Source: Pseudonocardia sp. NPDC049635
Lineage (GTDB): Bacteria; Actinomycetota; Actinomycetes; Mycobacteriales; Pseudonocardiaceae
Reading direction: 5' to 3'
Assembly: GCF_040659795.1 (NCBI RefSeq)
Contig: NZ_JBFAON010000008.1
Span: forward strand, 124,235 to 148,234
DNA: 24,000 nucleotides
Position 1 is the stretch's first letter. Each line of letters opens with the position of its first letter. The notes under the pieces are model-generated. The model saw only the letters and a program-made list of their open reading frames with translations. It did not search any database and was not told where the DNA came from. This document shows positions 6,935-21,580 of this stretch, one piece after another. Made by a program: the position numbers and the translations under genes.

Positions 6935-8067
6935 CCCTGGCCGACCAGCTGGGCGGCGTCGCGGTGCATGCGCCCGAAGTTGTAGTAGGCGGCGCACGCC
7001 CCCTCCGGGGAGACCATGCAGGTCCCGATCGGGGTCTCGGGGGTGCAGGCGGTGCCGAACACCTTGCACTCCCACGGTTTGAGCACCCCCTTCAGCACCT
7101 CGCCGCACTGGCAGGCCTTGGGGTCGGCCACCCGGACCCCCGGCAGGTCGACCCGGCGCTCGGCGTCGAACTCCGCGAACTCCTCGCGGATCGCGAGCGC
7201 GCTCTGCGAGATGAACCCGAGCCCGCGCCACTCGAAATGCGGACGCAGCGTGAACACCCGGCCCAGCAGTTCCAGCGCCGCCGGGTTGCCGTGCTCGTCG
7301 ACGACCCTGGAGTACTGGTTCTCGACCTCGCAGCGGCCCTCCCGGATCTGGGTCAGCAGCATCGCGACCGAGGCGAGGATGTCCAGCGGTTCGAATCCGG
7401 CGACCACCAGCGGCTTGCGGTAGACCTCGGGGACGAAACGGTACGGCGTCGTCCCGACGACGGTGGAGACGTGCCCGGGCCCGAGGAACCCGGACAACCG
7501 CAGGTCCGGCGAGTCCAGGATGGCCTTGATCGGCGGCACAATCGTCACGTGGTTGCAGAACACGCTGAAGTTCCGCACCCCCAGCTCACGCGCCCGGACC
7601 AGGGTGACCGCGGTGGACGGCGCGGTCGTCTCGAAACCGATCGCGTAGAACACGACCTGGCGGTCGGGGTTGTCGACGGCGATCTTCAACGCGTCCAGCG
7701 GCGAGTACACGAACCGCACGTCGCCGCCACGCGCACGGGCGTCGAGCAGGCTGCCGTTCGAACCGGGGACGCGCATCATGTCGCCGAAACAGGTCAGGAT
7801 GACCTCGGGCTGCTCGGCCAGCCAGATCGCGTCGTCGACCCGGCCCATCGGGATGACGCAGACCGGGCAACCCGGCCCGTGCACCAGCTCGACGTTGCCG
7901 GGCAGGAGGTGCTCGATGCCGTGCCGGTAGATGGTGTGGGTGTGCCCGCCGCACACCTCCATGAACTTGAAGTGTTCGCCCTCGCTGCGCGGCTCGGCGA
8001 GCCGCCCGATCGCCCCGAGCAGTGCCCGGGCTGCCGCGGGGTCGCGGAATTCGTCGACGAATCGCAT
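6931..8067 (-). CDS. hypD: [NiFe]-hydrogenase maturation protein HypD
   Basis: 378 aa starting MRFVDEFRD. Motifs: CGGHTHT, GPGCPVCV, GFETTAPS, GPGHVS, and a C-terminal Cys cluster (CQCGEVL...CTPETPIGTCMVSPEGACAAYY). Confidence 0.93.
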   Translation of the reverse strand: MRFVDEFRDPAAARALLGAIGRLAEPRSEGEHFKFMEVCGGHTHTIYRHGIEHLLPGNVELVHGPGCPVCVIPMGRVDDAIWLAEQPEVILTCFGDMMRVPGSNGSLLDARARGGDVRFVYSPLDALKIAVDNPDRQVVFYAIGFETTAPSTAVTLVRARELGVRNFSVFCNHVTIVPPIKAILDSPDLRLSGFLGPGHVSTVVGTTPYRFVPEVYRKPLVVAGFEPLDILASVAMLLTQIREGRCEVENQYSRVVDEHGNPAALELLGRVFTLRPHFEWRGLGFISQSALAIREEFAEFDAERRVDLPGVRVADPKACQCGEVLKGVLKPWECKVFGTACTPETPIGTCMVSPEGACAAYYNFGRMHRDAAQLVGQG

Positions 8068-8090
8068 GGCTGCTCCGTGGTCGAAATGTG

Positions 8091-8363
8091 TCAGACGATG
8101 GACGACGAATCGAGTGCGTCGATCTCGTCCTGATAGCTCTCGCCCATCTTCTGGACGGCGTCGAGGGTCAGCAGGGCCTCCTTCTCGTCGATACGCGCCA
8201 TGGCGAATCCGACGTGCACGAGAACCCATTCGTCGACGGCCGGGAAGTCCCGTTCGAGCAGCCGGACGCTGATCGTCCGCTGCACGCCGCTCACGTCGAC
8301 CTTGGCGAGACAGTTGGCCCGGTCGGTGATCTCCACGATCCGTCCGGGGATGCCGAGGCACAT
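8091..8363 (-). CDS. hypC: HypC-family hydrogenase chaperone (second copy)
   Basis: 90 aa. Has the N-terminal MCLGIPGRIVEI and the ...DEWVLVHVGFAMARID motif. SD GAGGAGAG lies just upstream. Starts 11 nt after the hypE stop. Confidence 0.9.
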   Translation of the reverse strand: MCLGIPGRIVEITDRANCLAKVDVSGVQRTISVRLLERDFPAVDEWVLVHVGFAMARIDEKEALLTLDAVQKMGESYQDEIDALDSSSIV

Positions 8364-8374
8364 GAACTCTCCTC

Positions 8375-9487
8375 TCAACAGATCCGGGGCAGCGGGTCGC
8401 CGACGAGCGTGTCGACGATCCGGGTGCCGCCGAAGCCGGTCCGGAGGACGACGGTGTCCGCGGGTTCCGCGGTGACGCTGCCGATCACCACGGCGTCCGC
8501 GCCGAGCGGATGGGCACGCAGCGCCGCCAGACCGGCGTCCACCTCGTCCGGGGCGAGCACGGCCAGGAACTTGCCCTCGTTGGCGACGTAGAGCGGGTCG
8601 ATGCCGAGCATCTCGCAGGCCCCGGCGACGACCGGGCGGACCGGCAGCGCCTCCTCGTCGAGCACGACGCCGAGCCCGCTCGCCACGGCCAGCTCGTTGC
8701 AGACGGTGCCGACCCCGCCACGGGTGGGGTCGCGCAGCCACCGGGTGGACGGCGCGGCCGCGAGCAGGTCCGCCACCGCCCCGGCGACCGCCGCGGTGTC
8801 GGAACGGATGTCGGCCTCGATCGCCAGGTCACCGCGGGCCAGCATGATCGCCATGCCGTGGTCGCCCATGAACCCGGAGAGCACGACCCGGTCGCCGGGG
8901 CGCACCGCGGCCGCGGACAGCGTCCGGCCGTCGGGCACCGACCCGACCCCGGTCGTGGTGATGTACACACCGTCCGCCGCGCCCTGCGGGACGACCTTCG
9001 TGTCACCGGCGACGATCGTCACCCCCGCCTCGGCGGCGGCCGACGCCATGTCCGCGACGATCTCCTTCAGCTCGGCGATCTCGAGACCCTCGGCGAGGAC
9101 GAACGCCGCGGTCAGCCAGGCCGGGACGGCCCCGGCCATCGCGAGGTCGTTGACCGTTCCGTGCACGGCGAGATGCCCGATCGACCCGCCAGGAAAGCGT
9201 CGTGGCGACACCACGAAGGAGTCGGTGGACACCGCGATCCGCTGCCCGCCCGGTGGGGCGAGCACCGCGCCGTCGCCGAGGTCGGCCAGTGCCGGGTTCC
9301 GGAACGCCTCCAGGAAGACGGCGTCGACCAGGGCCTGCGAGGACTTCCCGCCGGCACCGTGGGCGAGCGTGATCCGCTCCTCGCGCAGCCGTGGCCTGCG
9401 TCGGCGGAACGCCTCGATCCGGTCGATCACCTCGCCCTCGGCGAACCCCGGACCGGACTCCCGGTACTGCTGCACGGTCCCGCTCAT
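8375..9487 (-). CDS. hypE: [NiFe]-hydrogenase maturation protein HypE
   Basis: 370 aa from ATG 9487 (ATGA overlap with the upstream stop). Motifs: LAHGAGGK, HGTVNDLAMAGA, GDTKVV, and the diagnostic C-terminal PRIC. Confidence 0.93.
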   Translation of the reverse strand: MSGTVQQYRESGPGFAEGEVIDRIEAFRRRRPRLREERITLAHGAGGKSSQALVDAVFLEAFRNPALADLGDGAVLAPPGGQRIAVSTDSFVVSPRRFPGGSIGHLAVHGTVNDLAMAGAVPAWLTAAFVLAEGLEIAELKEIVADMASAAAEAGVTIVAGDTKVVPQGAADGVYITTTGVGSVPDGRTLSAAAVRPGDRVVLSGFMGDHGMAIMLARGDLAIEADIRSDTAAVAGAVADLLAAAPSTRWLRDPTRGGVGTVCNELAVASGLGVVLDEEALPVRPVVAGACEMLGIDPLYVANEGKFLAVLAPDEVDAGLAALRAHPLGADAVVIGSVTAEPADTVVLRTGFGGTRIVDTLVGDPLPRIC

Positions 9488-10131
9488 CGTCGCTCCTCCC
9501 GCATCCGGTGCACCGCGGACCACAACCGGTGGCCGAGCAGCGCCTGTGCCTCCTGGATCCGGTGCACGCTCTGCGACCGGACCACGAAGCAGACGTCGAG
9601 GTCGGTGCTCGTGGCGAACGATCCGCCGTCGTAGCCCGCGAACCCGATCGTGAACATCCCGCTCCGCCGGGCCTGTGCCAGTGCCGCCGTGAGGTCCCGG
9701 GAGCTGCCGCTGGTGGACATCGCGACGGCGATGTCGCCGTCCGCACCGCGGGCGATCAGCTGCCGGGCGAAGACCAGGTCGAAGCCGACGTCGTTGCCGA
9801 GCGCGGTGAGGATCGCCTGGTCGGCGGTCAGCGACCAGGCCGGCAACGGCCGGGCACCGGCGGGCGGGTGGGCGAACAGCGCGGCGAGGGTGGCGGCGTC
9901 GGTCGAGCTGCCGCCGTTGCCGAAGGTGAACATCCGCCCGCCGGCGGCGAACCGTTCGGCCACCGCGGCGGCGGCCCGCTCGACGTCGGCCGCGCAGTCC
10001 TCGGCGGTCGCGCGGCGCAGCCGGGCGCTCTCGGTCGACTTGGCGACCGCGGAGGCGGCGAGATCGGCCAGCAGCGGGCCCGGGTCCCGCTCCCGGGCGT
10101 CCAGGAACGGGTAGAGGAAACCGGAGCTCAT
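9484..10131 (-). CDS. SIS-domain protein (GmhA/DiaA-like sugar-phosphate isomerase fold)
   Basis: 215 aa. Motifs: FTFGNGGSSTDAA, LPAWSLTAD...LTALGND, IAVAMSTSGSSRD, SVHRIQEAQ. ATGA overlaps at both ends (10128-10131 and 9484-9487). Confidence 0.85.
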   Translation of the reverse strand: MSSGFLYPFLDARERDPGPLLADLAASAVAKSTESARLRRATAEDCAADVERAAAAVAERFAAGGRMFTFGNGGSSTDAATLAALFAHPPAGARPLPAWSLTADQAILTALGNDVGFDLVFARQLIARGADGDIAVAMSTSGSSRDLTAALAQARRSGMFTIGFAGYDGGSFATSTDLDVCFVVRSQSVHRIQEAQALLGHRLWSAVHRMREERR

Positions 10132-10859
10132 CGGGTGCCCTCCGCACTCAGCACGCGCAGCGCCGCCCCGGCGTGCACCAGCAGCAGGTCGTCGCGGCGG
10201 ACCCGCCCGACCAGGTCGACCACCACCTCCTGCTCGCCGTCCGGGGTGCGGACCAGCGCGGTCGACCCGGTGCCGGGATCGGTCACCTCGACCACCCGGC
10301 CCTCGTCGCTGCAGGTCACACACACCTCGTCGGTGCAGCCCTCGGTGGTGAGCAGGCCGGGATGCTCGAAGCAGACGTGCGTGAGCTCCCACAGCAGGTG
10401 GTAGAGCAGCACGAAGCCACCGGTCGCCGGCTGCGCCGGGTCGGGGTCGTCGTGCCACAGGACGTGATCGGCCGACCCCGCGGGCGGGCGCGCACCGTGC
10501 CCGATCCAGATCGTGGTCGCGCCCCAGGCGGGCGCCCGGCGGGCGATCTCCCGGACGTACGGGTCCGCCGCGTCCGCGACGGCGAGCACCACGTCGCCCG
10601 GGCGCACCGACAGCCGCGCGGTCGCGACCGGGTCGCGGTCGGTGAGGGCGACGGCCGGCAACGCCCTGGCCCCGACGACCACCGGGTGGACGAACTCGAC
10701 CGCGACGTGCTGCGCGTGCGGCTCCCAGGCGGGCGCCACACACCACAGGGTCGCCCCGGTGGAGAAGCGGCGGGCCAGTGTCAGGGCGGCGGCCGCGAGG
10801 TCGTCGGCGAGTTCGGGGGCGAGGCCCGCGTCCGTCCCGGTCTCCGGTGCGGTCGTCAC
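10128..10859 (-). CDS. fusion of a degenerate SIS-like N-terminal domain with a HupF/HypC-like C-terminal domain
   Basis: 243 aa from GTG 10859 (GTGA overlap with the hypC stop). The N-terminus, LWCVAPAWEPHAQHVAVEFVHPVVVGARALPAVALT, resembles the SIS core but lacks GNGGS. The C-terminal ~75 aa, CTDEVCVTCSDEGRVVEV...ALVRTPDGEQEVVVDLVGRVRRDDLLLVHAGAAL, resembles HupF-type chaperones. Confidence 0.75.
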   Translation of the reverse strand: MTTAPETGTDAGLAPELADDLAAAALTLARRFSTGATLWCVAPAWEPHAQHVAVEFVHPVVVGARALPAVALTDRDPVATARLSVRPGDVVLAVADAADPYVREIARRAPAWGATTIWIGHGARPPAGSADHVLWHDDPDPAQPATGGFVLLYHLLWELTHVCFEHPGLLTTEGCTDEVCVTCSDEGRVVEVTDPGTGSTALVRTPDGEQEVVVDLVGRVRRDDLLLVHAGAALRVLSAEGTR

Positions 10860-11107
10860 GAGGACACCCCCCGGTCCTCGAGGACGCCGTACTCGACCAT
10901 GGTCCGCAACGTCGCCATGGCGGCCGCCTCGTCGACATGGCTGAGCGCGAACCCGGCGTGCGCGATCGTGTACTCCCCGACCTGCAGGTCCGGGACGTAG
11001 GCGAGGCAGAGGTCCTGTTCGGTGTCCGGGAAGCGGACCCGAGCCATGCGGGCGCCGGTCTCGGCGTCCCAGACCCGGATCACCTGCCCGGGGATTCCTA
11101 GGCACAT
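10856..11107 (-). CDS. hypC: HypC-family hydrogenase chaperone (first copy)
   Basis: 83 aa. Starts [12 protein letters not shown] and contains ...[19 protein letters not shown] 11107 overlaps the hypF stop (TAG 11098-11100) by 10 nt. Confidence 0.9.
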
Positions 11108-13533
11108 GGGCTGGACCCTCCTGGTCGTGCGTGGTGGTGGACGGCGGACGGTCCCCCGGAGCCGGGTCGCTCCGCCAGGGCCGTCAGTACCGCTGTCGCA
11201 GCCTGGCCGAGCGCCAGACCGCCGTCGTTGGGCGGGACCACCCGGTGGGTGAGCACCTCGTGCCCGGCGGCCTGCAGCCGCCGCCGGGTCTCCCGCAGCA
11301 ACAGCACGTTCGCGAAGACGCCGCCGGTCAGGCCGACCGTCCGTCGACCGGGGGCGAGGACCGCGACGGCCCGGACGACGGCGTCGGCCAGCGCCCGGTG
11401 GAACGCCGCGGCGAGCTCGGCCGGCCGGATCCCGTGCCGCAGCCCGGCGACGATCCCGCGGATCACCGGGCCCGGATCGAGGACGCCGTCGGGGCCGACA
11501 CCGAACCCGGGCACCGGCCACCGGGACCGTCCGCCCGGTGCCGCGCCCGACGTCGCGGTCGCGGCGAGCGCCTCCAGCTCGATCGCGGCCTGACCCTCGA
11601 ACGCGATCCGGTGCCGCACGTCGAGCAGGGACGCGACGGCGTCGAACAGCCGGCCGACACTGCTGGTCGGCACACAGCCCACACCGCTGTCCAGCTGGGA
11701 CTCCAGCGCGGCCCGCTCGGCGGCGGAGGTGGCCCGCACCGGGGCCAGGTCCGCGGTGCGGGCCACCCCGGCCGCGCGGGCGTGCACCAGCGCCATCCGC
11801 CACGGGTTGCGGACCGCGGCGTCACCGCCGGGCAGCGGCACCGGTGCGAGGTGGCCGGCCCGGGTGAACCGGTGACCGTCCGCTCCGACCAGCAGGATCT
11901 CCCCGCCCCAGACGGTGCCGTCGGTGCCGTGACCGGTCCCGTCGAAGGCGACGCCGACGACCGGGCTGCCCAGCCGTCCGTGCTCGGCGAGCAACGCCAG
12001 CACGTGCGCGTGGTGGTGCTGCACGAGATCGGGTGGACGGTCCCCGGCGAGCCGTTCGGCCCGGCCCCGGGTGAGGTAGCCGGGGTGCAGGTCGGCGACC
12101 ACCCGCTCCGGACGCCCGCGCAGGGCGGTGAGCCGCTCGACGGCCCGGTCGAACGCGAGGGTGGTCTCCAGCGATCCCATGTCACCGACGTGCGCCGAGC
12201 AGAAGGCGTGCCTGCCGTCGGTCAGGCAGAACGTGTTCTTGAGCTCGCCACCGACGGCGAGCACCCGCGGCCCGGTGACCCCCAGGTCGATCGGCAACGG
12301 GGCGTACCCGCGGGACCGCCGGATCGGCAGTTCCTCGCCGTCGACGACCCGGACCACCGAGTCGTCGCACGGCACCTCGATCGGCCGGTCGTGGTCGAGC
12401 ACCGCGTCGCACAGCCCCGGCAGCCGGTCACGGGCGTCAGCGTCGGTGTGGCACAGCGGCTCGTCGCTGAGGTTCGCGCTGGTCAGCACGATCGCGTCCG
12501 GGACGGGGGCCGGGTCGCCGGGGACCGGCGCGAGCAGCAGGTGGTGCACCGGGGTGTAGGGCAGCAGCAGTCCGAGCAGCGGGTTCGCCGGTGCGACCTG
12601 TTCGGCGACCGGCGCCCCGGGCCGGCGCTCCAGGAGCACGACCGGCCGCTGCGCCGAGCCCAGCACCGCCGCCTCGTCCGGGGAGATCCGCGCGTAGCGC
12701 CGTGCGGTGTCGACGTCACGGACCAGCAGTGCGAACGGCTTGCCGGTTCGGGCCTTGCGCCGGCGCAGCTCGGCCACCGCGACGGCGTCGTCCGCGGCAC
12801 AGGCCAGGTGGTAGCCACCGATCCCCTTGACGGCGACGATCCGGCCGGCCGCGAGGGCGCGCTGCGCCGCGGCGATCGCGGCGTCACCGGTGCGCCCGTC
12901 CTCCGCACAGCGGCCGGCGTCCCCGGCCGGCCCACCGTGCGCGCACCGGTAGGTCAGGACCGGGCCGCAGTCCGGGCAGGCCACCGGCTGGGCGTGGAAG
13001 CGCCGGTCGGCCGGATCGGCGTACTCGGCGGCGCAGCGCTCACACATCGCGAACCCGGCCATCGTGGTGGCCGGGCGGTCGTAGGGGAGGCCGCGGATGA
13101 TCGTGAACCGCGGGCCGCAGTCGGTGCAGGTGACGAACGGGTGCCGGTAGCGGCGGTCGGCCGGGTCGAACAGCTCGCGGAGGCAGGCGGCGCAGGTGGC
13201 GACGTCCGGGGGGACCGTGGTCGCCGCTCCCCCGGACGCCCGGCTCCCGTCGATCCGGAAGGCACCGGCGCCGGTCGCCCGCAGGTCGGTCCAGTGGACC
13301 GACTCGATCCGCGCGAGCGGGGGCGCCTCGGTGCGCAGCCTGCGGTCGAACTCGTCGAGCGCGGCGGGTGGGCCCTCGACCTCCAGGAACACCGCCGCGG
13401 AGTCGTTGCCGACCAACCCGCCCAGCTCCAGCGCGGTGGCCAGCCGGTGCACGAACGGACGGAACCCGACGCCCTGGACGACGCCGGTCACCACGGCCCG
13501 GCGACGGAGGGCACCGGCGGCCGGGGCGCTCAC
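11098..13533 (-). CDS. hypF: carbamoyltransferase HypF
   Basis: 811 aa from GTG 13533 (GTGA overlap with the NHL gene stop; GGAGG upstream). Acylphosphatase-like [18 protein letters not shown], two Zn-finger pairs (CAACLREL...CTDCGPRF; CERCAAEY...CPDCGP), a YrdC-like [12 protein letters not shown], and a Kae1-like C-terminus (LTGGVFAN...[12 protein letters not shown]). I trimmed the 918-aa track ORF. Confidence 0.93.
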
Positions 13534-14726
13534 GAGCCCGCCTCCGTGCGGTGCCACAGCACGACCCGGTTGTTGCCCGAGTCGCACACCGCGAGCCGGT
13601 CGCCGTGCAGGGACAGTCCGTAGGGCCAGCACAGCGTGTCGTCGAGCACGGCCGCCCACCGGTTCTCCCCGTTGCCGGCGAAGTCCGGCTGGGCCAGCAC
13701 GTGCCGGGCGCCGCGCCCGTCGGTCGGCACCGTGTCCCACAGCAGCACCCGGTTGTTGGCGGTGTCGGCCACCGCGAACCGGTCGCCGCACGGGTCGAGG
13801 CAGGCCGAGTAGGGGAAGCGCAACCCGGCGGCGGTCTGCGGGGCGTAGGGCCACTCGTCCCCGGTGTCCAGACCGGGCTGGCCGATCGCGAAGCCGGCGG
13901 GCCGGTCGGCGTCCGGGGCGGGTGCCCAGCCCAGCACCCGGTGGTTACCGGCGTCGGCGACCAGCAGCAGACCGTCCCGGCCGGTGACCGCGTGCGGCCA
14001 CCGGAAGCTCGCCGGGCCGACGCCCTCGCCGCGGTTCTCCTCCCGCGCTGCCGGGCCGGGCTGACCGAGCACGACGTCCGCGGGGCGTCCGGGGCCGGGG
14101 ATCCCGCCGTCCCAGCCGAGCACCCGGCGGTTGCCGGTGTCGGCGACCCAGAACCGTCCGTCCACGATCCCGACGCCGAACGGCCAGTAGAACGTGGCCG
14201 CCGAGCAGGCGCCGCCGGCGTTCGGTTCGACGCTGTCCGGGCCCGGCTGGCCGAGCACCAGGTCGGGGGCGACGTCGTCGGAGCGCGGGACGGAGTCCCA
14301 GACCAGGATCCGGTGGTGCCACGCGTCGGCGACGACCAGCCGCCCGTCGTGCACCAGCACGCCGGTGGGCAGGTTCATCCCGTTCGCCGGGCCGCGTCCG
14401 CCCGCCGCGCGGCCCTCGGTGGTCGCGTCCGGCTGGCCGAGCACGACGTCGGCCGGCTGCTCGTCGGTGTCCGGCCCGCCGTGCCAGAGGAGCACCCGGT
14501 GGTTGCCGGTGTCGGCGACGGCGAGCAGGCCCGGGTCCAGGTGCACCCCGCGCGGCGAGTACATCCAGGACCGCGAGGGCGTCGCCGAGGGCAGGGCCAA
14601 CCCGCCGGTCGCGGGTGCGCCCAGCCGGACGCCCGGTGCCCAGCCACCGGCCAGCGCCGGGTCGGTGCCGGGATCGACGCGTGTCGGGCGCCCGCCGATG
14701 CTGTGCCGGACCGTCAGCCGGCTCAC
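13530..14726 (-). CDS. six-bladed NHL-repeat beta-propeller protein
   Basis: 398 aa from GTG 14726 (GTGA overlap with the hucE-like stop). Six blade signatures: [91 protein letters not shown]. Recurrent VLGQP/AIGQP/VLAQP linkers. No signal peptide by eye. Confidence 0.85.
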
Positions 14727-15628
14727 GGTTCGGCCCGGACCCAGACGGTGTCGCGCTCGACCCGCATCGGGAGCCGTTCGAGCTGGGCGCCGGGCGCGCT
14801 CAGGCACTCCCCGGAGCCGGCGTCGAAGCAGAACCCGTGCCACGGGCAGGTGAGCGTGCCCGCGGTGACGTCGAGCAGCGCGTCGTCGAGCGGGAGCCCC
14901 TCGTGCGCGCAGGCGTTGCGGAACGCGGCGAGCCCGTTGTCGACGTTCACCACGACCAGCGAGGCCCGCCCGCCGGGTGTGTCCACCTCGACCGGGTGCA
15001 CCGCCCCCACCGGGAACTGCGCGGTGGACCCGGCCCGCGACCAGCCCTGGGTCGCCGGGTCCGGGCCGATCCGCAGCTCGTCGAGCGGGATCAGGGTCGG
15101 CGACGGCTCGTTCGGCAGCACCTCGACGGTGGTGATCTCCGGTACGCCCTCGACCAGGCTGGACTCGACGAGGTTGCGCAGCGTCACCGAGGACATCGAG
15201 CAACCGTTGCAGGCACCCTCCAGCCGGACGAACGCGGTCGCGCCCTCCACCCGGTCCAGCAGCACGTTCCCGCCGTGGCTCGCCAGCTGCGGTCGCACCC
15301 CGGCCAGAGCCCGTTCGGCCCGGACCGACGGGGGTTCGCGCACGATCCCGTGCAGCGACAGCAGCATCCGCACCACCGGCTCGTCGGCCAGCTCGAACAG
15401 GGCGGGCCGGGTCGCCTCGTCGGCCTTGAGCCGGCGGACGATCTGCACCAGCCCGGCCCGATGCACCGCCTCCAGCGCCGCCCGCAGCTCCTCGGCGGCG
15501 GCCCGCGCGGCCGGGTCGAGGTCGGCCAGTGCGCTCACGGCACGGTCGACGCGGCCGGCGAGCTCCTCGAAGGTCGGTTCGGTGCCCGGCTCGGCAGCCG
15601 GGGCCGTGGGGGATACCGAGGTCGTCAT
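14723..15628 (-). CDS. hucE: HucE-like putative iron-sulfur protein (NifU C-terminal-like domain + Rieske [2Fe-2S] domain)
   Basis: 301 aa from ATG 15628 (SD GAGGAA 5 nt upstream). NifU-like LEGACNGCSMSSVTLRNLVE. Rieske motifs: CAHEG...(19 aa)...CPWHGFCF. Confidence 0.82.
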   Translation of the reverse strand: MTTSVSPTAPAAEPGTEPTFEELAGRVDRAVSALADLDPAARAAAEELRAALEAVHRAGLVQIVRRLKADEATRPALFELADEPVVRMLLSLHGIVREPPSVRAERALAGVRPQLASHGGNVLLDRVEGATAFVRLEGACNGCSMSSVTLRNLVESSLVEGVPEITTVEVLPNEPSPTLIPLDELRIGPDPATQGWSRAGSTAQFPVGAVHPVEVDTPGGRASLVVVNVDNGLAAFRNACAHEGLPLDDALLDVTAGTLTCPWHGFCFDAGSGECLSAPGAQLERLPMRVERDTVWVRAEP

Positions 15629-15680
15629 GGCCGTTCCTCGCTGTGGTGGTGGGTGGTCCGTCGTCCGGGGCGGGCCGGGA

Positions 15681-17033
15681 TCAGCCGGGGGCCGGTGCCG
15701 GTGCGTCGTGCTCGGCGGTGCGGGCCAGTGCGGTCTGCCGGGCGATCTCGTCGAGCACACCGCGCACCGCGCGCACCGACGCCTCGTCGGTGTGCTCCTC
15801 GAACAGGAAGCGCGCCTCGTAGAGGCGGGCCTTGGCGTCGTCGAACGCCCCGAGGTGGGCGAGGACGGTCCCCTGGTTGCTGAGCACCCTGGCCCGGCCG
15901 AGCGGATCGGCGTGCCGGTCCCGGGTCTGCAGCACCGCCTCGTAGATCTCGACGGCGTCGACCAGGTTCTCCTCGCGGTGCGCGGTCGGGCCGTAGACCA
16001 GCGAGTTGGCGAGGTTCAGCTGCAGGCTCGCCCACTCGGCCGGGTGGTCCTCGCGGGTGTAGACGGTCAGCGCCGCCCGCAGCGACTGGGCCGCGATCCC
16101 CAGCCGCAGCTGCCCGGAGGCCTCGACCATCGGCATCGTCAGATAGGCCGTGGCCAGTCCGGCGTGCGCCGCGGCCCAGGTCAGCGCCGCGTCCTCGCGG
16201 CGCACCAGCTGCAGCGCCGCGTGGTAGTGCGGGACGGCCCGGTTCAGCATGTCGGGCCGGTCGTCCGCCTGCTCGTGCAGCGCCCCGGCCAGCTCCAGGT
16301 GCACCTCGGCCCGGCCGACGGCCACGCCGTCGGCGTCGTCGAGCAGGGCCAGCGCCTGCTCGAAGCGGGCCACGCAGCCGAGGTCACCGTGTTCGCGCAG
16401 GATCCCGGCGGCGGCCGCGTGCAGCAGGCCGGCCAGCGGCGGTGACACCGGTGCGGCCTGCTCGACGGCCCGGTCCAGCAGGGCCACGGCGGCGGCGGGC
16501 CCGTCGGTGCCGAGCACGTGGGCGGCCTGCGCGGACAGCACGAGCGCGCCGATCTCGCCGTCGGCCACCTCGCCGTCGGCCACGTCACCGTCGGCCACCG
16601 CGCCGGACGAGCCGGGGGGCTGGTCGGTCCGGCCGAGCGCGAACAGCACCAGGTCGACCAGCACACCGAGCTCCCCCAGCTCCCGGCGGAGCCGGTCCGG
16701 GTCGGTGCCGCGCGGGGCCGGCGCGTCCGGGTCGAGGACGAAGCGGTTGTACCGGGCGACCGGTCCGGGCTCGGGATCGGCGTCCAGCACGGCGAGCGCA
16801 CCGTCCCGGTCCCCGGCCAGCGCCAGCTCGTGGGCACGCAACCGGTCCGGCCAGCGCGCCGGCACCCGCCCGGCGAGCAGGTCGAGACGGGCCGGGTCGG
16901 TGTCCGTTCCGGCCGGTACCAGGAGGTACCCGAGCGGCAGCGGCAGGACGCCGAGCGGCTGCGGTCGGGTGAGCAGCCCGGCCGGGCCGGGATCGTGCGG
17001 TCGGTCGGCCATCTGGGGGTCCCTCGTGTTCAT
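15681..17033 (-). CDS. TPR-like helical-repeat protein, function unknown
   Basis: 450 aa from ATG 17033 (ATGA overlap with the stop of the 81-aa ORF). The C-terminal two-thirds shows TPR-like helix pairs (LTWAAAHAGLATAYLTM, EWASLQLNLANSLVYG, RARVLSNQGTVLAHLGAFDDAKARLYEARFLFE). I trimmed the 764-aa track ORF. Confidence 0.75.
   Translation of the reverse strand: MNTRDPQMADRPHDPGPAGLLTRPQPLGVLPLPLGYLLVPAGTDTDPARLDLLAGRVPARWPDRLRAHELALAGDRDGALAVLDADPEPGPVARYNRFVLDPDAPAPRGTDPDRLRRELGELGVLVDLVLFALGRTDQPPGSSGAVADGDVADGEVADGEIGALVLSAQAAHVLGTDGPAAAVALLDRAVEQAAPVSPPLAGLLHAAAAGILREHGDLGCVARFEQALALLDDADGVAVGRAEVHLELAGALHEQADDRPDMLNRAVPHYHAALQLVRREDAALTWAAAHAGLATAYLTMPMVEASGQLRLGIAAQSLRAALTVYTREDHPAEWASLQLNLANSLVYGPTAHREENLVDAVEIYEAVLQTRDRHADPLGRARVLSNQGTVLAHLGAFDDAKARLYEARFLFEEHTDEASVRAVRGVLDEIARQTALARTAEHDAPAPAPG
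16560..16604 (-). repeat. in-frame 15-nt tandem repeat x3 inside the TPR-like gene (encodes VADGD/VADGE/VADGE)
   Basis: Plus-strand units are gtcggccacctcgcc / gtcggccacgtcacc / gtcggccaccgcgcc. The protein reads AVADGDVADGEVADGEIGA. Confidence 0.8.
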
Positions 17034-17275
17034 CGCTGGTCTCGCTGGTCTCGTTCGGCGGCGCGGCGGATCAGCCGGGCGGAGATCCGGGCCCGTGCCT
17101 CGGTCGGATGGGAACTGATGCGCTTGCGGACCACACCGTCGGCGAAGACGACGACGATCTCGACGACCCACCGGCCGCGCTCGTGCACGACCTCGGTGTG
17201 CACGTCCAGTGCCTCGTCCACGGGGCTTTCCGGACGGGGCGTGGCCCCGGGCCGCTCGTCCGGTGTCCCGCTCAT
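17030..17275 (-). CDS. small hypothetical protein (81 aa)
   Basis: ATG 17275 lies 6 nt after the protease stop, and its own stop overlaps the next start (ATGA). Codons are GC3-rich. No motif recognised. Coding status rests only on operon context and codon bias. Confidence 0.5.
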   Translation of the reverse strand: MSGTPDERPGATPRPESPVDEALDVHTEVVHERGRWVVEIVVVFADGVVRKRISSHPTEARARISARLIRRAAERDQRDQR

Positions 17276-17281
17276 CGCCGG

Positions 17282-18100
17282 TCACGTCTCCCGGAGCGGG
17301 ATCCGCAACGCCTTCTGCTCGTCGTCCCATGCGGTCGGGCGCGGCCCGCTGACCACCCGCTCCCCCAGCACCTCCCGGACGAGGACCGACCGGTCCCCGG
17401 CCGGGTTGCGCTGCTTGAGCAGCAGGCCCCCGCTGCGCGGGCCGGTCAGCGGGACCAGCCAGAGGTCGTCGTCGCGTACCGCGGCGACCGCCGCGTCCGA
17501 CGGGAACCGGCCGGCCGCGAGCCGGGCCGGCAACCGCAGGTAGCCGTCCGGGGTGAACTCCACCGGGTCGTCCGCGCCGGCGTCGGGCCGGAGCTCCGCG
17601 AGGTACTCCCGCTCCACCATCTCGATCACCTGTTCCATCCCTCGCCGCACCGGCTCGGACAGCTCGGCGCCGAGCTCCACGCCTGCCACCTCGATCAGGA
17701 ACACCGTGATGTCGTCCGGGCAGGCCTCCGCCAGCGCCCACCGGGCCAGTGCGATCGCATGGTCCCAACGGAACGAGTGCGTGTGCACCCCCTCGAGCGG
17801 AGGCAGGTCGGCCAGCTCGGCGCCCGGAACGCGGAACACGGTGCCCGGGTCCGAGCCGGTCGCCGCAGCGTCGACGACGACGACGCGATCGGCGCCGCGC
17901 ATCTGGAACGCGACGTCCATCCCCGCGGTGCCGCCGTCGACCAGCCGGGCGCCGTCCGGGACACCGCGTTCCCACAGGTGGCGCACGAGCACCGGGCCGA
18001 CCCCGTCGTCACCCCGCAGCAGGTTCCCGCAGCCGATCACCAGCACGGCGCAGCCGGGCGGTTCCAGGTCCGGGGGTTCGGTGGCGGACGTCGGACTCAC
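17282..18100 (-). CDS. [NiFe]-hydrogenase maturation endopeptidase (HupD/HybD family) with a ~100-aa C-terminal extension
   Basis: 272 aa from GTG 18100 (GTGA overlap with the large-subunit stop). Protease core: VLVIGCGNLLRGDDGVGPVLV, GGTAGMD, VVVVDAAATG, HTHSF. The ~100 extra C-terminal residues (about 17282-17590) have no protease homology that I recognise. Confidence 0.85.
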   Translation of the reverse strand: MSPTSATEPPDLEPPGCAVLVIGCGNLLRGDDGVGPVLVRHLWERGVPDGARLVDGGTAGMDVAFQMRGADRVVVVDAAATGSDPGTVFRVPGAELADLPPLEGVHTHSFRWDHAIALARWALAEACPDDITVFLIEVAGVELGAELSEPVRRGMEQVIEMVEREYLAELRPDAGADDPVEFTPDGYLRLPARLAAGRFPSDAAVAAVRDDDLWLVPLTGPRSGGLLLKQRNPAGDRSVLVREVLGERVVSGPRPTAWDDEQKALRIPLRET

Positions 18101-19704
18101 ACCATTCCGTTGACGACGAACTTCGACAGTTCCCGCCCGGTCCTCCCGTCGTAGGCGTGCACGGTGCACACCAGGCAGGAGTCGAAGCTGCGCGCCACGT
18201 GCCCGAGCTCCACCGGGTCCTCGGCGTCCACGATCGGCGAGCCGACCAGCGCGGACTCGATCGGGCCCGCCACCTCGGCGCCGTCGCGCGGCCCGATGTT
18301 CCAGGCCGTCGGCGTGATCACCTGGTAGTTCTTGATCTTGTTGTCCTCGATCACGATCCAGTCGGACAGTGCACCGCGGGCCGCCTCGGTGGAGCCGAAG
18401 CCCTTGCCCTCCGCGTACTCGGTGGGCTTGGTGTAGAAGCTCTCCTTCAGGTCCAGCTGGTCCAGCCAGTTCCGCACCCACGAGTAGTACTTGGGTGCCT
18501 CGTGCATCCGCGCCAGCTGGCGGACGAACACGCTCGGCCCCATCTTGGCCACGATGTCGACGAACAGCGGGTCCTCGTCCTGGTGGGCGGCCGCGCCCGG
18601 CGCGCCCGCCGCCATCCGGCGGGCCAGCGGCCCGGCCTCCAGCGGGACGTGCCCGAGGCCCGGGACGTCGTAGCGGGGCGACTTCGCCCAGCTGTACTTG
18701 CCCTGCTGGGCACCGACGGCCGGGTCGATCGGGTTGGTCTCGCCCTCGAACGGGTGCAGCGCGCCGGTGCCCTCGTAGAACGAGTGCGTGACGTCCTCGG
18801 TGACCCGGGCCTGGTCGAAGGCGTGCCAGGTGCCACCGGCGTAGATGCCGGAGCGGCCGATCAGCGCGTCGTTGCGCCCGTCGATGGTCGGGTTCTCGTA
18901 GCGCGACGGCTCGAAGTAGGTGCCGGTCGCCAGGAAGTTCCCGACCCCGCGGCCGTAGCGGTCGAGCCCGATGTCGAGCGAGTAGCGGATGAAGAAACCG
19001 CAGTCGCTGTTGTAGTGCGACTCGTTCTCCTCGACCCAGGCCAGCACGTCGGACCAGGTCCGGTTCTCCAGCCAGCGCTCCACCGAGCAACCCAGCCACT
19101 GCTTCTCGAGCCAGTTGTCCTTCCAGTGCTCGAAGATCGCGATGGACCGGGTGACGTCGGCCAGCGTCGGGGCGCACATGACGCCCCCGGGCACCATGAA
19201 GCTGGAGTGCGGCCACTGCCCGCCGAAGATCGCGTAGACCTCGACCGGCTTGGCCGAGAGGACCACCCCCGGCTGGTAGCTCGTACCGACGTAGGGGGCG
19301 AACCGGCGGACGGCCTCCTCGTACAACGCGGACTTCGCGTAGTTCTTGTTCGTGAAGTCGATCGCGAACAGCGCGTAGAAGTACCGCGGGATCGACTGCA
19401 GCGTCTCCGCGGCCTGGCAGATGTTGCGGATCAGGGTGGCGTTGGGCGGCATGTGCGTCTTCCATGCCGTGTCCAGCGCATAGGCCGACTTGTAGAGGTG
19501 GCTGCCGCCGCAGATGCCACAGATCCGCGGGGTCACGATCAGGCCGGCCTGGGGGTCCTTGCCGCGCAGGATCATCTCGAAACCGCGGAACATCGCGGCC
19601 TCGGTCCAGGCCGAGGTGACGACGCCGTCGTCGACGGTCACCCGGACGTCGAGGTCGCCCTCGACCCGGCCGAGCGGGCTGACGTGGAGATCGAGTGTGG
19701 TCAT
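18097..19704 (-). CDS. hucL: [NiFe]-hydrogenase large subunit, group 2a (Huc/HupL-like)
   Basis: 535 aa. L1 motif RICGICGGSH. L2 motif SFDSCLVCTVH followed by a 19-aa cleavable tail (AYDGRTGRELSKFVVNGMV). Conserved LGRVEGDLDV and WPHSSFMVPGG. SD GAAAGGA lies 9 nt upstream. Confidence 0.95.
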   Translation of the reverse strand: MTTLDLHVSPLGRVEGDLDVRVTVDDGVVTSAWTEAAMFRGFEMILRGKDPQAGLIVTPRICGICGGSHLYKSAYALDTAWKTHMPPNATLIRNICQAAETLQSIPRYFYALFAIDFTNKNYAKSALYEEAVRRFAPYVGTSYQPGVVLSAKPVEVYAIFGGQWPHSSFMVPGGVMCAPTLADVTRSIAIFEHWKDNWLEKQWLGCSVERWLENRTWSDVLAWVEENESHYNSDCGFFIRYSLDIGLDRYGRGVGNFLATGTYFEPSRYENPTIDGRNDALIGRSGIYAGGTWHAFDQARVTEDVTHSFYEGTGALHPFEGETNPIDPAVGAQQGKYSWAKSPRYDVPGLGHVPLEAGPLARRMAAGAPGAAAHQDEDPLFVDIVAKMGPSVFVRQLARMHEAPKYYSWVRNWLDQLDLKESFYTKPTEYAEGKGFGSTEAARGALSDWIVIEDNKIKNYQVITPTAWNIGPRDGAEVAGPIESALVGSPIVDAEDPVELGHVARSFDSCLVCTVHAYDGRTGRELSKFVVNGMV

Positions 19705-19743: not shown

Positions 19744-20715
19744 TCAGACGACGAACATGTCCTCCTTGGACCACTGCGGCGCCGCGATCTTCGCTGCCGC
19801 GGCGTGCGCCATGTAGGTCAGGTGGTCGCTTCCCTCGGGGACCTCCTTCGGGATGGCCCCGCTGACCTTCTGCGTCTTGAACACCGTCCCCGGTGCGAGA
19901 TCGAAGTGCGGGAACTCGGGCTCGGTGCAGCCCAGGCACGGCATGCCGGCCCTGGTCTTCGACGACTGCCGGTTCCACAGGATCCGGTTGCACGGCGAGT
20001 GCGTCATCGGCCCGCGGCAGCCGAGCTCGTAGAACAGGCAGCCGGTGCGGGTGCCCTCCCCGAACGAGTACGTGGACTGCTTGTACTCGAAGAACTGGAC
20101 CCGGGTGCAGCCGGTCTGGGTGAAGGACTTGAAGAACGTCTCCGGCCGGTGCATGTCGTCGAGCGTGATGTCGCCCGCCCGGCCGGTGGCGAGCGCGACG
20201 AGGATCTGGGTGATCCAGTCGGGGTGCGCGGGGCAGCCCGGCACGTTGATCACCGGTAGCCCCATCTTGGACTTGAAGTCGGGGCCGAGGAACCCGCCCT
20301 TGGCCCGCTTGTGGAACTGCAGTCCGGTCGAACCGGACGGGTTCGGCTCCATCGCCGGGATCCCGCCGAAGCAGGCGCAGTCACCGATGGCGACCACGAT
20401 CTGCGCCGCCGCGGCCAGGTCGGTGACCCAGTCCTTCATCGGCCGGTCGGCGAACATGTCCATCCGCCCGGAGCCGTCGGGCGCCTCGATGACGGTGCCC
20501 TCGAACACGAAGATGTCCAGCGGGCGATCGCCGTTCACGCAGTCCCAGAAGACCTTCTGCGCGTTCTTGCCCAGCTCCAGCCCGAGCGACGGGTGCCAGA
20601 CCAGATCCAGCCCGAAGTCGACGATCAGGTCGACGACGTTCGGTTCCTCGGCGTTGAGGAACGACATCGTGTTCCCGCTGCACGCTCCGCCCTGGAACCA
20701 CAGCACGGACGCCAT
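19744..20715 (-). CDS. hucS: [NiFe]-hydrogenase small subunit, group 2a, no Tat signal
   Basis: 323 aa. It begins directly at MASVLWFQGGACSGN, with no twin-arginine leader. Motifs: GDCACFGGIP, VPGCPAHPDW, GCLFYELGCRGP, SPCN, MPCLGCTEPEFP. SD GAGAGGAG is upstream. Confidence 0.95.
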   Translation of the reverse strand: MASVLWFQGGACSGNTMSFLNAEEPNVVDLIVDFGLDLVWHPSLGLELGKNAQKVFWDCVNGDRPLDIFVFEGTVIEAPDGSGRMDMFADRPMKDWVTDLAAAAQIVVAIGDCACFGGIPAMEPNPSGSTGLQFHKRAKGGFLGPDFKSKMGLPVINVPGCPAHPDWITQILVALATGRAGDITLDDMHRPETFFKSFTQTGCTRVQFFEYKQSTYSFGEGTRTGCLFYELGCRGPMTHSPCNRILWNRQSSKTRAGMPCLGCTEPEFPHFDLAPGTVFKTQKVSGAIPKEVPEGSDHLTYMAHAAAAKIAAPQWSKEDMFVV

Positions 20716-20858: not shown

Positions 20859-21386
20859 TCAGGTGAGGCGACGGCCCAGTGCACGGGCCGTCTCGACGAG
20901 GACCGCGAGTCCGCGGGCGACGTCGTCGTCGCGCAGCGTGCGCAACAGCCCGAACACGCCGGAGGGCGGAGCGGGTGCCGCCGACGCACGCTCCCGGCCC
21001 GCCACCAGTGCCTCACCGAACAGGACCAGGGTGTCCGCCGTCCGCGGATCGGTCAGCAGCGACGAGGTGAGCAGGGTCTGCAGCTGCGGGGTCGCACCGG
21101 CGACCCCGCCGGACAGCGTGGCGAGGCTGCCGACCAGCCCTCGCAGGTCGACGTCCGCCAGCTCCGCCGGGAGACCGACCGACCGCAGGTCCCGGACTCC
21201 GTCGGCGACGGCCTCGGTGATGACGTCGCCGCGCCGGACGAAGCCGTCGAGCGACTCGACGAGCAGCGCGAGCAGGTCGGCGTGCTCGAGGATGTCGCCG
21301 AGCGCGGCGGCCACCTTCGGGTCGTCCAACCGCTCCGCGAGCCCGTCGGCCGGCGACCGCGCGGCGAGCTGACCGTTGACGGTCAC
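20859..21386 (-). CDS. DUF1641-like protein; HucM-like third-subunit candidate by position and size
   Basis: 175 aa from GTG 21386, which lies 5 nt after a strong SD GAGGAGGA (21391-21398). The track ORF starts at GTG 21428. The helical sequence LDDPKVAAALGDILEHADLLALLVESLDGFVRRGDVITEAV resembles DUF1641 proteins from memory. It sits immediately upstream of the small subunit. Confidence 0.65.
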   Translation of the reverse strand: MTVNGQLAARSPADGLAERLDDPKVAAALGDILEHADLLALLVESLDGFVRRGDVITEAVADGVRDLRSVGLPAELADVDLRGLVGSLATLSGGVAGATPQLQTLLTSSLLTDPRTADTLVLFGEALVAGRERASAAPAPPSGVFGLLRTLRDDDVARGLAVLVETARALGRRLT

Positions 21387-21580
21387 GGGGTCCTCCTCGG
21401 TGCTGGGCGGATGTGTGAGGCGAGGCACAAGGCTAGGCCCGAAGACGGACCCGGCCTATCTCTTCTGCGCAGCGACTGTCGTGATTGCGCTGACCTTGTG
21501 ACGGTCATGCGCTGTTCTCCGGGACGGACTTGCGTGCAGGGTGGAGGATTCCTCGCGGATCACGGAGTTGTGAGCGGCTC
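21387..21580. promoter_or_regulatory. divergent intergenic region: hydrogenase operon promoter and AraC-family gene promoter
   Basis: The lowest-GC stretch in the window by eye. Near-palindrome gcgcTGACC-ttgtgac-GGTCAtgcgc at 21487-21512. Candidate minus-strand -10 TAGCCT at 21430-21435. Both are unverified. Confidence 0.4.

Follow-up and report, generated by a model that had tools for sequence, protein, structure and literature searches.

A block of four accessory genes lies between the structural genes of a Huc-type hydrogenase and hypF in Pseudonocardia sp. NPDC049635, within a 24,000-nucleotide stretch of DNA (assembly GCF_040659795.1, contig NZ_JBFAON010000008.1, positions 124,235-148,234 of the forward strand; hereafter the window). 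These genes encode a small protein of 81 residues (s81), a TPR protein of the HcaA type, the NifU-Rieske protein HucE and an NHL propeller of the HcaB type. The block is tied to the Huc hydrogenase by three tests, namely its arrangement in actinobacterial loci, its recurrence in other phyla and its distribution in genome samples, and the window's copy is an unremarkable further example of a group 2a accessory block that is widely conserved and already published. The reading favoured here, with a probability of roughly 55%, is that the block constitutes a Huc-specific maturation or assembly module and not an electron relay. The additions made to what was known are modest: the s81 domain and its fusions, a TPR-NifU fusion, the joint loss of several genes, and the persistence of the block without HucM.

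The match of HucL to the Mycobacterium smegmatis Huc large subunit over its whole length, together with a small subunit, HucS, which begins directly at its first cluster motif and has no twin-arginine signal, identifies the context as a group 2a Huc-type [NiFe]-hydrogenase operon. Among public loci, that of Pseudonocardia kongjuensis is nearest, its HucL being 94% identical.

Association of the accessory block with Huc hydrogenases

The arrangement of the block was compared in 80 actinobacterial loci containing close relatives of HucL, taken with 10-kb flanks. The genes for the HupD endopeptidase, the TPR protein, HucE and the NHL protein are found in the same order and orientation in every locus that extends far enough, approximately 75 being collinear, and every absence of one of these genes coincides with the end of a contig. 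The s81 gene is kept in 72 related loci and is truly missing from three (L074, L076 and L079). The placement of hypF varies, as it may be directly downstream, upstream or out of range, indicating that it is the structural genes, and not hypF, that the block accompanies. In the same order, the complete genome G435 harbours a reduced Huc cluster (HucL 73% identical) that retains HucM, HucS, HucL, the protease, a separate gene for the C-terminal domain of the protease, the TPR protein and, of HucE, the N-terminal helical domain alone, with hypF as the next gene.

For other phyla, clusters were taken with their deposited annotation, 12 kb being read on either side of HucL, and scored with hidden Markov models (HMMs) built from the actinobacterial proteins. 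In eight plasmid-borne clusters, those of Thermus, Sulfobacillus, Runella, Hymenobacter, Sphingopyxis, Octadecabacter, Bradyrhizobium and M. intracellulare, which together span five phyla, the NHL protein (7e-72 to 1.3e-221), the TPR protein (8.4e-16 in Hymenobacter to 2.2e-220, with 1.6e-92 in Thermus) and the protease were always detected, and HucE in six. HucM was detected only in M. intracellulare, Thermus and Sulfobacillus, no homologue being found within the loci read in the alphaproteobacterial clusters. Group 2a clusters carrying the block recur, on plasmids or chromosomes, in Deinococcota, Bacillota, Alphaproteobacteria and, for NHL and TPR, Bacteroidota. The order protease-(C-domain)-TPR-(small open reading frames)-NifU-NHL is common to Thermus, Sulfobacillus, Sphingopyxis, Octadecabacter, Bradyrhizobium, Hyphomonas and Tistlia.

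The alphaproteobacterial clusters also contain extra genes: two Cys-rich proteins of 105-126 residues (CxxCMYY...C...C) are encoded between HucL and the protease, and two hydrophobic, two-helix membrane proteins of 64-73 residues between TPR and NifU. These are possibly alternative partners or membrane anchors.

Genome samples, which consist of random and related genomes rather than independent trials and for which no statistical test is claimed, give a similar picture. Within the order, HucL was present in 4 of 151 genomes and the TPR protein in those same four, with NHL and s81 each in three; none of TPR, NHL or s81 was found in the 147 Huc-negative genomes. Across the phylum (301 genomes), full-length NHL was confined to four Huc-positive genomes, and in five others short matches (E 1e-10 to 1e-20) fell inside unrelated 700-residue NHL-repeat proteins. 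An earlier note on this DNA had attributed the four genes to a Huc-type hydrogenase and had named phylogenetic profiling of the NHL and TPR genes as a check on whether these two are merely sporadic; both the attribution and the expected synteny are borne out by the collinearity in relatives and across phyla and by the restriction of full-length homologues to Huc-positive genomes.

Domain composition and gene fusions

HucE matches the NifU (2.7e-20) and Rieske (2.1e-13) families in Pfam, and consists of a helical N-terminal domain (residues ~1-100), an Nfu-type NifU domain with a C140-x-x-C143 pair and a Rieske domain with the ligands C240-x-H242...C261-x-x-H264. In the PDB it is related to plant CnfU/NFU1 and to T4moC, a Rieske ferredoxin, and the motifs GACNGCSMS, CAH and CPWH previously read in it are all present. 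C140, C143, C240, H242, C261 and H264 are invariant in seven sequences from four phyla, and through its CxxC pair the Nfu domain is a candidate carrier of Fe-S clusters. In Actinomycetota, Deinococcota, Bacillota and Alphaproteobacteria, the stop codon of hucE and the start of the NHL gene overlap. Not every lineage has the Rieske domain, which is absent from the TPR-NifU fusion of L076 and from the HucE of Thermopolyspora (L079), and truncated forms of HucE without the C-terminal domain have been reported by Islam et al. (PMC6883350). The Nfu domain is kept wherever the Fe-S part of HucE is present, although it is degenerate in one lineage. Thermopolyspora HucE also has a long, repetitive N-terminal extension.

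The TPR protein falls below the Pfam cut-off (TPR_12, 0.0028). Its AlphaFold 2 (AF2) model has 18 helices, with a mean predicted local distance difference test score (pLDDT) of 90.5 and a predicted template modelling score of 0.86, and resembles the TPR domains of LGN/Pins and kinesin light chain (KLC; best Foldseek E 6.5e-6). It is therefore predicted to be a peptide-binding TPR superhelix, and the scaffold-type fold anticipated for it is matched in the model by the superhelices of LGN/Pins. Across phyla, conservation holds for the C-terminal core of ~200 residues; the N-terminal ~150 residues, containing RPQPLGxFP, are lineage-specific and found only in Actinomycetota, Thermus and Sulfobacillus, which are the lineages also encoding HucM. 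In an uncultured actinomycete (L076), the TPR reading frame continues without a stop into NifU, generating a protein of 546 residues that lacks both the N-terminal and the Rieske domains of HucE, at a locus from which s81 is absent. The identical 546-residue protein is called in two independent assemblies, and L100 and L101 also carry it.

The 398-residue protein matches Pfam NHL (4e-25), is of a length that fits the ~370-400 residue class, and contains six [AC]D-x-x-[NH]-x-R-[VI] motifs, at residues 71, 133, 195, 257, 320 and 381. The six blade signatures that had been claimed for it are thus found, and the protein is, as judged from these repeats, a six-bladed NHL propeller. It is 35-69% identical to the NHL proteins of eight group 2a clusters from five phyla, and no other NHL gene was found in the window's own genome. 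The matches listed in two protein searches with NHL queries were close relatives only, from Actinomycetota in one and Alphaproteobacteria in the other; in a reverse look-up, the homologues of Hyphomonas and Tistlia proved to lie in group 2a clusters. In Bacteroidota the gene adjoins hyp genes, beside hypE.

The s81 protein has an N-terminus variable in length and sequence and a conserved core of ~55 residues. The core is modelled by AF2 with a pLDDT of 92-97 as a three-stranded beta meander followed by a C-terminal helix (strands 24-32, 35-44 and 47-56, helix 59-80), preceded by a disordered N-terminus. Neither Pfam nor NCBIfam contains a match, and no fold in the PDB matches the model better than E 0.09, the best neighbours (E 0.09 to 0.4) being dsRBD-like and YfiA-like beta-alpha pieces that are not significant. 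When 1.84 billion representative proteins were searched with a profile, 175 clusters at 50% identity were recovered, nearly all of 55-105 residues; the longer members were considered as true fusions and rejected, since they are mostly frame-shifted or chimeric calls. Conservation of this reading frame had been named beforehand as a test of its reality, and with its retention in 72 loci and a median dN/dS of ~0.32 against those 72 relatives, s81 is a real conserved gene that belongs to no named family. In Runella, an s81-like domain (2.5e-9) occurs in a 119-residue protein encoded between two TetR genes, just upstream of hucS and not after the protease.

The HupD protease occupies residues ~19-165 of its protein and is fused to a C-terminal domain of ~100 residues which, like the N-terminal domain of HucE, has no match in Pfam or NCBIfam. 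In Thermus (2.9e-31), Sulfobacillus (2.7e-12) and Alphaproteobacteria (2.7e-09 to 5.7e-13), the C-domain has a gene of its own immediately following that of the protease, and it scores more weakly in Bacteroidota (Runella 0.0087, or 4.6e-05 with filters off; Hymenobacter 4.3e-04, only with filters off). The 165-residue Sulfobacillus protein following the protease comprises the C-domain (residues 2-91, 1.8e-14) and then an s81 domain (100-164, 1.3e-12), and a second such fusion exists, of equal length and 50% identical to it. Protease, C-domain and s81 are hence joined pairwise by fusions in different lineages. Together with the TPR-NifU fusion, these argue for physical association, and the proteins found fused are probably in contact.

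A proposed role in hydrogenase maturation

Fusions to the protease, the coupling to hypF, the position of NHL beside hypE in Bacteroidota and the retention of the Nfu domain where Rieske is lost all point to a maturation module. The earlier note had stated that a HucE-type protein is needed for Huc activity in M. smegmatis, and this agrees with the genetic evidence: hucE is required, its deletion phenocopies structural mutants, and the artificial acceptor nitroblue tetrazolium gives no compensation (PMC6883350), which fits a factor that makes the enzyme and not a downstream acceptor. From the identity and domains of the genes, their conservation, their co-occurrence with Huc and their fusions, we infer a series of biochemical steps. 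Translated together with the maturation protease and HypF, the products of the block would most likely act ahead of the finished enzyme, forming an assembly line dedicated to HucS and HucL, which are cytosolic and Tat-independent. Fe-S clusters would be brought by the Nfu domain of HucE to HucS, the published small subunit containing three [3Fe-4S] clusters. The Rieske domain, in those HucE proteins that have one, would donate or withdraw the electrons required when clusters are built in air. The TPR superhelix and NHL propeller may serve as platforms holding unfolded or apo subunits and HucE, and s81 and the protease C-domain may act at the step of HucL cleavage. The absence of the HucE N-terminal domain from the TPR-NifU fusion, and its retention beside TPR in G435, suggest that this domain docks HucE onto the TPR protein.

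Several observations weigh against a maturation module. The Rieske domain is a classic electron-transfer module and is kept in most lineages. Thermopolyspora HucE has no Rieske domain and a degenerate NifU motif, GASRGC, from which the first Cys has gone; no HucE gene was found on the two Bacteroidota plasmids (Runella and Hymenobacter); and s81, NifU-Rieske and NHL have all gone from the Huc cluster of G435, so the module is not universally required. A search of the whole G435 genome found neither NHL nor s81 elsewhere, and its sole other HucE-like match, at a different site, is weak and covers the Rieske region (E 1.9e-6). Electron transfer was the role for HucE favoured by Islam et al. (PMC6883350), and the literature yielded no direct evidence, whether biochemical or genetic, on the TPR, NHL or s81 proteins of any organism. 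In RNA-seq data from Parageobacillus (PMC12976888, Table 1), TPR and NHL are at ~0.02-0.04 fragments per kilobase per million (FPKM) in all conditions, and adjacent genes are induced several hundred-fold, to hundreds of FPKM, a pattern the authors leave unexplained. One hypB gene in that dataset reads similarly low, the three genes together spanning ~0.01-0.04 FPKM, and these near-zero values may be technical.

If HucE were instead an electron relay, its Rieske domain would take electrons from HucS to the quinone pool, with the TPR and NHL proteins holding it on the enzyme. The invariance of the Rieske and CxxC ligands in four phyla would fit such a role, as would the requirement for hucE in H2 oxidation (PMC6883350), and in the alphaproteobacterial clusters, where no HucM was seen in the loci read, the two small membrane proteins adjoining NifU could anchor a relay. 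Yet purified Huc, consisting of HucS, HucL and HucM only, reduces menaquinone directly and unaided (10.1101/2022.10.09.511488), nitroblue tetrazolium does not rescue the hucE deletion, the Rieske domain can be dropped, as in L076 and L079, with the Nfu domain staying, and the fusions and translational couplings are to maturation genes and not to respiratory ones. On these grounds the relay, one of the options put forward in the earlier note, is disfavoured; it is quite improbable overall and we reject it as the main role. Maintenance of the finished enzyme, in which the module would repair or protect the Fe-S clusters of Huc against oxygen damage over long persistence, is also unlikely, if a little less so. 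Huc works in air, Nfu-type carriers such as NfuA serve cluster repair under stress, and the module is dispensable in some lineages. The genes are furthermore co-expressed with the structural genes (PMC5338346); against this, deletion of hucE abolishes activity entirely rather than hastening its decay (PMC6883350), and the fusions to protease domains place the action before HucL is cleaved.

The version proposed at the outset, that the proteins assemble or quality-control the 833-kDa, HucM-centred oligomer, draws on the use of TPR and propeller folds as typical assembly platforms and on the confinement of the TPR N-terminal region to HucM-bearing lineages. Its link to the large oligomer is weak, however, as alphaproteobacterial clusters retain the TPR core, NHL and HucE, and those of Bacteroidota TPR and NHL, with no HucM gene in the loci read, and we regard it as very unlikely. 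Still more doubtful is that NHL and HucE perform Huc-specific tailoring, either by forming D-His166 of HucL or by trimming [4Fe-4S] clusters to the [3Fe-4S] clusters of HucS. We know of no enzyme that forms D-His166. Position 166 of M. smegmatis HucL is reported as D-histidine, with its origin unexplained in the published structure, and all that fits a catalytic NHL protein is its restriction to Huc genomes and the conservation of His166 in the window's HucL (QWPH166SS). The Huc-specific maturation module therefore remains the favoured reading.

Features of the Pseudonocardia locus

The window has a GC content of 74%, and its minus strand carries from ~5.3 to 21.4 kb a long run of genes chained by start/stop overlaps, with the operon order HucM-HucS-HucL-HupD-s81-TPR-HucE-NHL-HypF; hucE thus lies 3' of hucSL in a group 2a cluster (Table 1). 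The four block genes are at the coordinates originally claimed for them on the minus strand, and the couplings described for them are likewise present: the s81 stop and the ATG of the TPR gene share ATGA, and GTGA is shared both by the HucE stop with the NHL start and by the NHL stop with the hypF start. The sole non-overlapping junction described for the block is a 52-nt spacer 5' of hucE, and no terminator-like sites were found on the minus strand between hypF and hucM. Third-position GC contents of 0.84, 0.95, 0.94 and 0.96 for s81, TPR, HucE and NHL are as expected for genuine genes in a genome of 74% GC. In none of the four proteins does a 19-residue Kyte-Doolittle window rise above 1.6, and transmembrane helices are hence not predicted, in agreement with the absence of such helices claimed earlier. 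The four open reading frames (ORFs) are accordingly genuine genes, forming the Pseudonocardia copy of the Huc accessory block.

Table 1. Positions of the accessory block, its context genes and the comparison loci. Coordinates refer to the window unless a locus identifier is given.
Feature	Position	Strand	Start, evidence or remark
s81 (81 aa)	17030-17275	minus	ATG start; ORF
HcaA-type TPR protein (450 aa)	15681-17033	minus	ATG start; ORF, AF2/Foldseek
TPR N-terminal region	16600-17033	minus	RPQPLGxFP
s81 stop/TPR start overlap	17030-17033	minus	ATGA
HucE (301 aa)	14723-15628	minus	Pfam NifU + Rieske
HcaB-type NHL propeller (398 aa)	13530-14726	minus	GTG start; Pfam NHL
HypF	11098-13533	minus	GTG start at 13533; context gene
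HupD endopeptidase (272 aa)	17282-18100	minus	HycI/TIGR00072 matches (Pfam, NCBIfam); outside the four-gene block
HupD C-domain (~100 aa)	17282 to ~17593	minus	C-domain HMM
HucL	18097-19704	minus	PDB 7UUS/7UTD, E = 0
HucS	19744-20715	minus	Pfam; context gene
HucM/DUF1641	20859-21428	minus	Pfam; context gene
TPR-NifU fusion (546 aa)	L076 12571-14208; L100 and L101 6001-7641		Identical protein in two assemblies
Thermopolyspora HucE	L079 15017-16039		
Stand-alone or fused C-domain	L086 14062-14406; L087 14077-14574; L089 12976-13287		
Runella s81-like protein (119 aa)	L088 9800-10159		
Alphaproteobacterial extra genes	L089 11790-12499, 14390-14835; L091 13650-14361, 16274-16699; L092 13686-14337		
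Reduced Huc cluster of G435	L094 (G435:C1:1722000-1741900), about 7700-15800		

Relationship to previously described systems

The block had been called uncharacterised, but publications have covered it from 2008 onward (PMC2408588, PMC7248562, PMC7784904). The order TPR/NifU/NHL between hupSL and hypF was described in that year in cyanobacteria by Agervald et al. (PMC2408588). Nostoc and other N2-fixing cyanobacteria have five ORFs at this position, encoding two small proteins followed by TPR, NifU-like and NHL proteins, which are co-transcribed with hyp genes and for which a role in maturation of the small subunit was proposed (PMC2408588; Holmqvist et al., PMC3126725); in PCC 7120 and N. punctiforme the series is asr0689, asr0690, alr0691 (TPR), alr0692 (NifU-like), alr0693 (NHL) and hypF (PMC2408588, PMC3126725). 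The TPR, HucE and NHL proteins of the window are equated with alr0691-alr0693 by the domain descriptions in these papers, and no cyanobacterial NHL match was found among 14 control genomes. The small proteins differ, as asr0689 and asr0690 have two transmembrane regions and s81 has none (maximum hydropathy 1.11, soluble model); s81 resembles a domain of Bacillota and Bacteroidota and not the cyanobacterial small ORFs, the description of which is fitted by the 64-73-residue alphaproteobacterial proteins.

In group 2a operons, the TPR and NHL genes were named hcaA and hcaB, and their function called unclear, by Hogendoorn et al. (PMC7248562, citing Greening 2015). These are the same two families in the same type of operon, with no difference found in the window. 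Genes of this type are mentioned too in PMC11879354, the accessory genes are drawn in papers on Frankia and Parageobacillus, and hucE and NHL-repeat proteins are listed as commonly associated with hucL across phyla (PMC7784904). The M. smegmatis huc operon, MSMEG_2261-2270, includes the protease MSMEG_2264, TPR MSMEG_2267 and HucE MSMEG_2268 (Berney 2014; PMC6883350), with gene order and domains as in the window, and in the proteome of that species MSMEG_2267 and HucE are detected and fall together with HucL, HucM and the protease (PMC5338346). Compared with the window, mycobacterial loci are 57-79% identical in protease, TPR, HucE and NHL, 51-74% in s81 and 85-87% in HucL, and the annotated gene order on the M. 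intracellulare plasmid is identical. Two differences concern junctions: hypF directly follows NHL in the window, whereas many mycobacteria have it upstream or elsewhere, and mycobacterial genes overlap at the point where the window has its spacer before hucE.

HhyE (MSMEG_2718), a group 1h counterpart of HucE on which its own hydrogenase depends, combines a NifU-like CxxC domain with an end in CxxC pairs, where HucE ends in a Rieske motif (PMC6883350). A Huc-positive member of the Mycobacteriaceae (G069) encodes a second HucE-like gene, 31% identical, which no second NHL gene accompanies in that genome. In literature from 2021 onward, searches for HucE or HhyE turned up only unrelated uses of these letters, and the helper proteins go unmentioned in a 2023 review of these enzymes. 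The HupGHIJ/HoxOQRT proteins of group 1 hydrogenases, as cited in PMC2408588 and PMC6883350, are likewise encoded between structural and hyp genes, are needed for the Fe-S subunit when the enzyme is made in air, include a rubredoxin-type redox protein and serve Tat-exported enzymes, unlike HucS of the window with its lack of a Tat signal. No sequence relation between the block and these proteins was seen in Pfam or NCBIfam, and they may offer a working analogy for its role.

Implications for Huc production

Enzymes of the Huc type, which in air oxidise hydrogen present at atmospheric levels, are sought as catalysts, and their production outside native hosts will need the right helper genes. 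Of the helpers, the C-domain of the protease, the core of the TPR protein and the NHL propeller are constant across phyla; HucE is frequent; and the Rieske domain, s81 and HucM are optional. The interest of the block lies in its function, to which the fusions and co-losses give some experimental direction, and the constancy of individual helpers should focus both knock-out and co-expression work.

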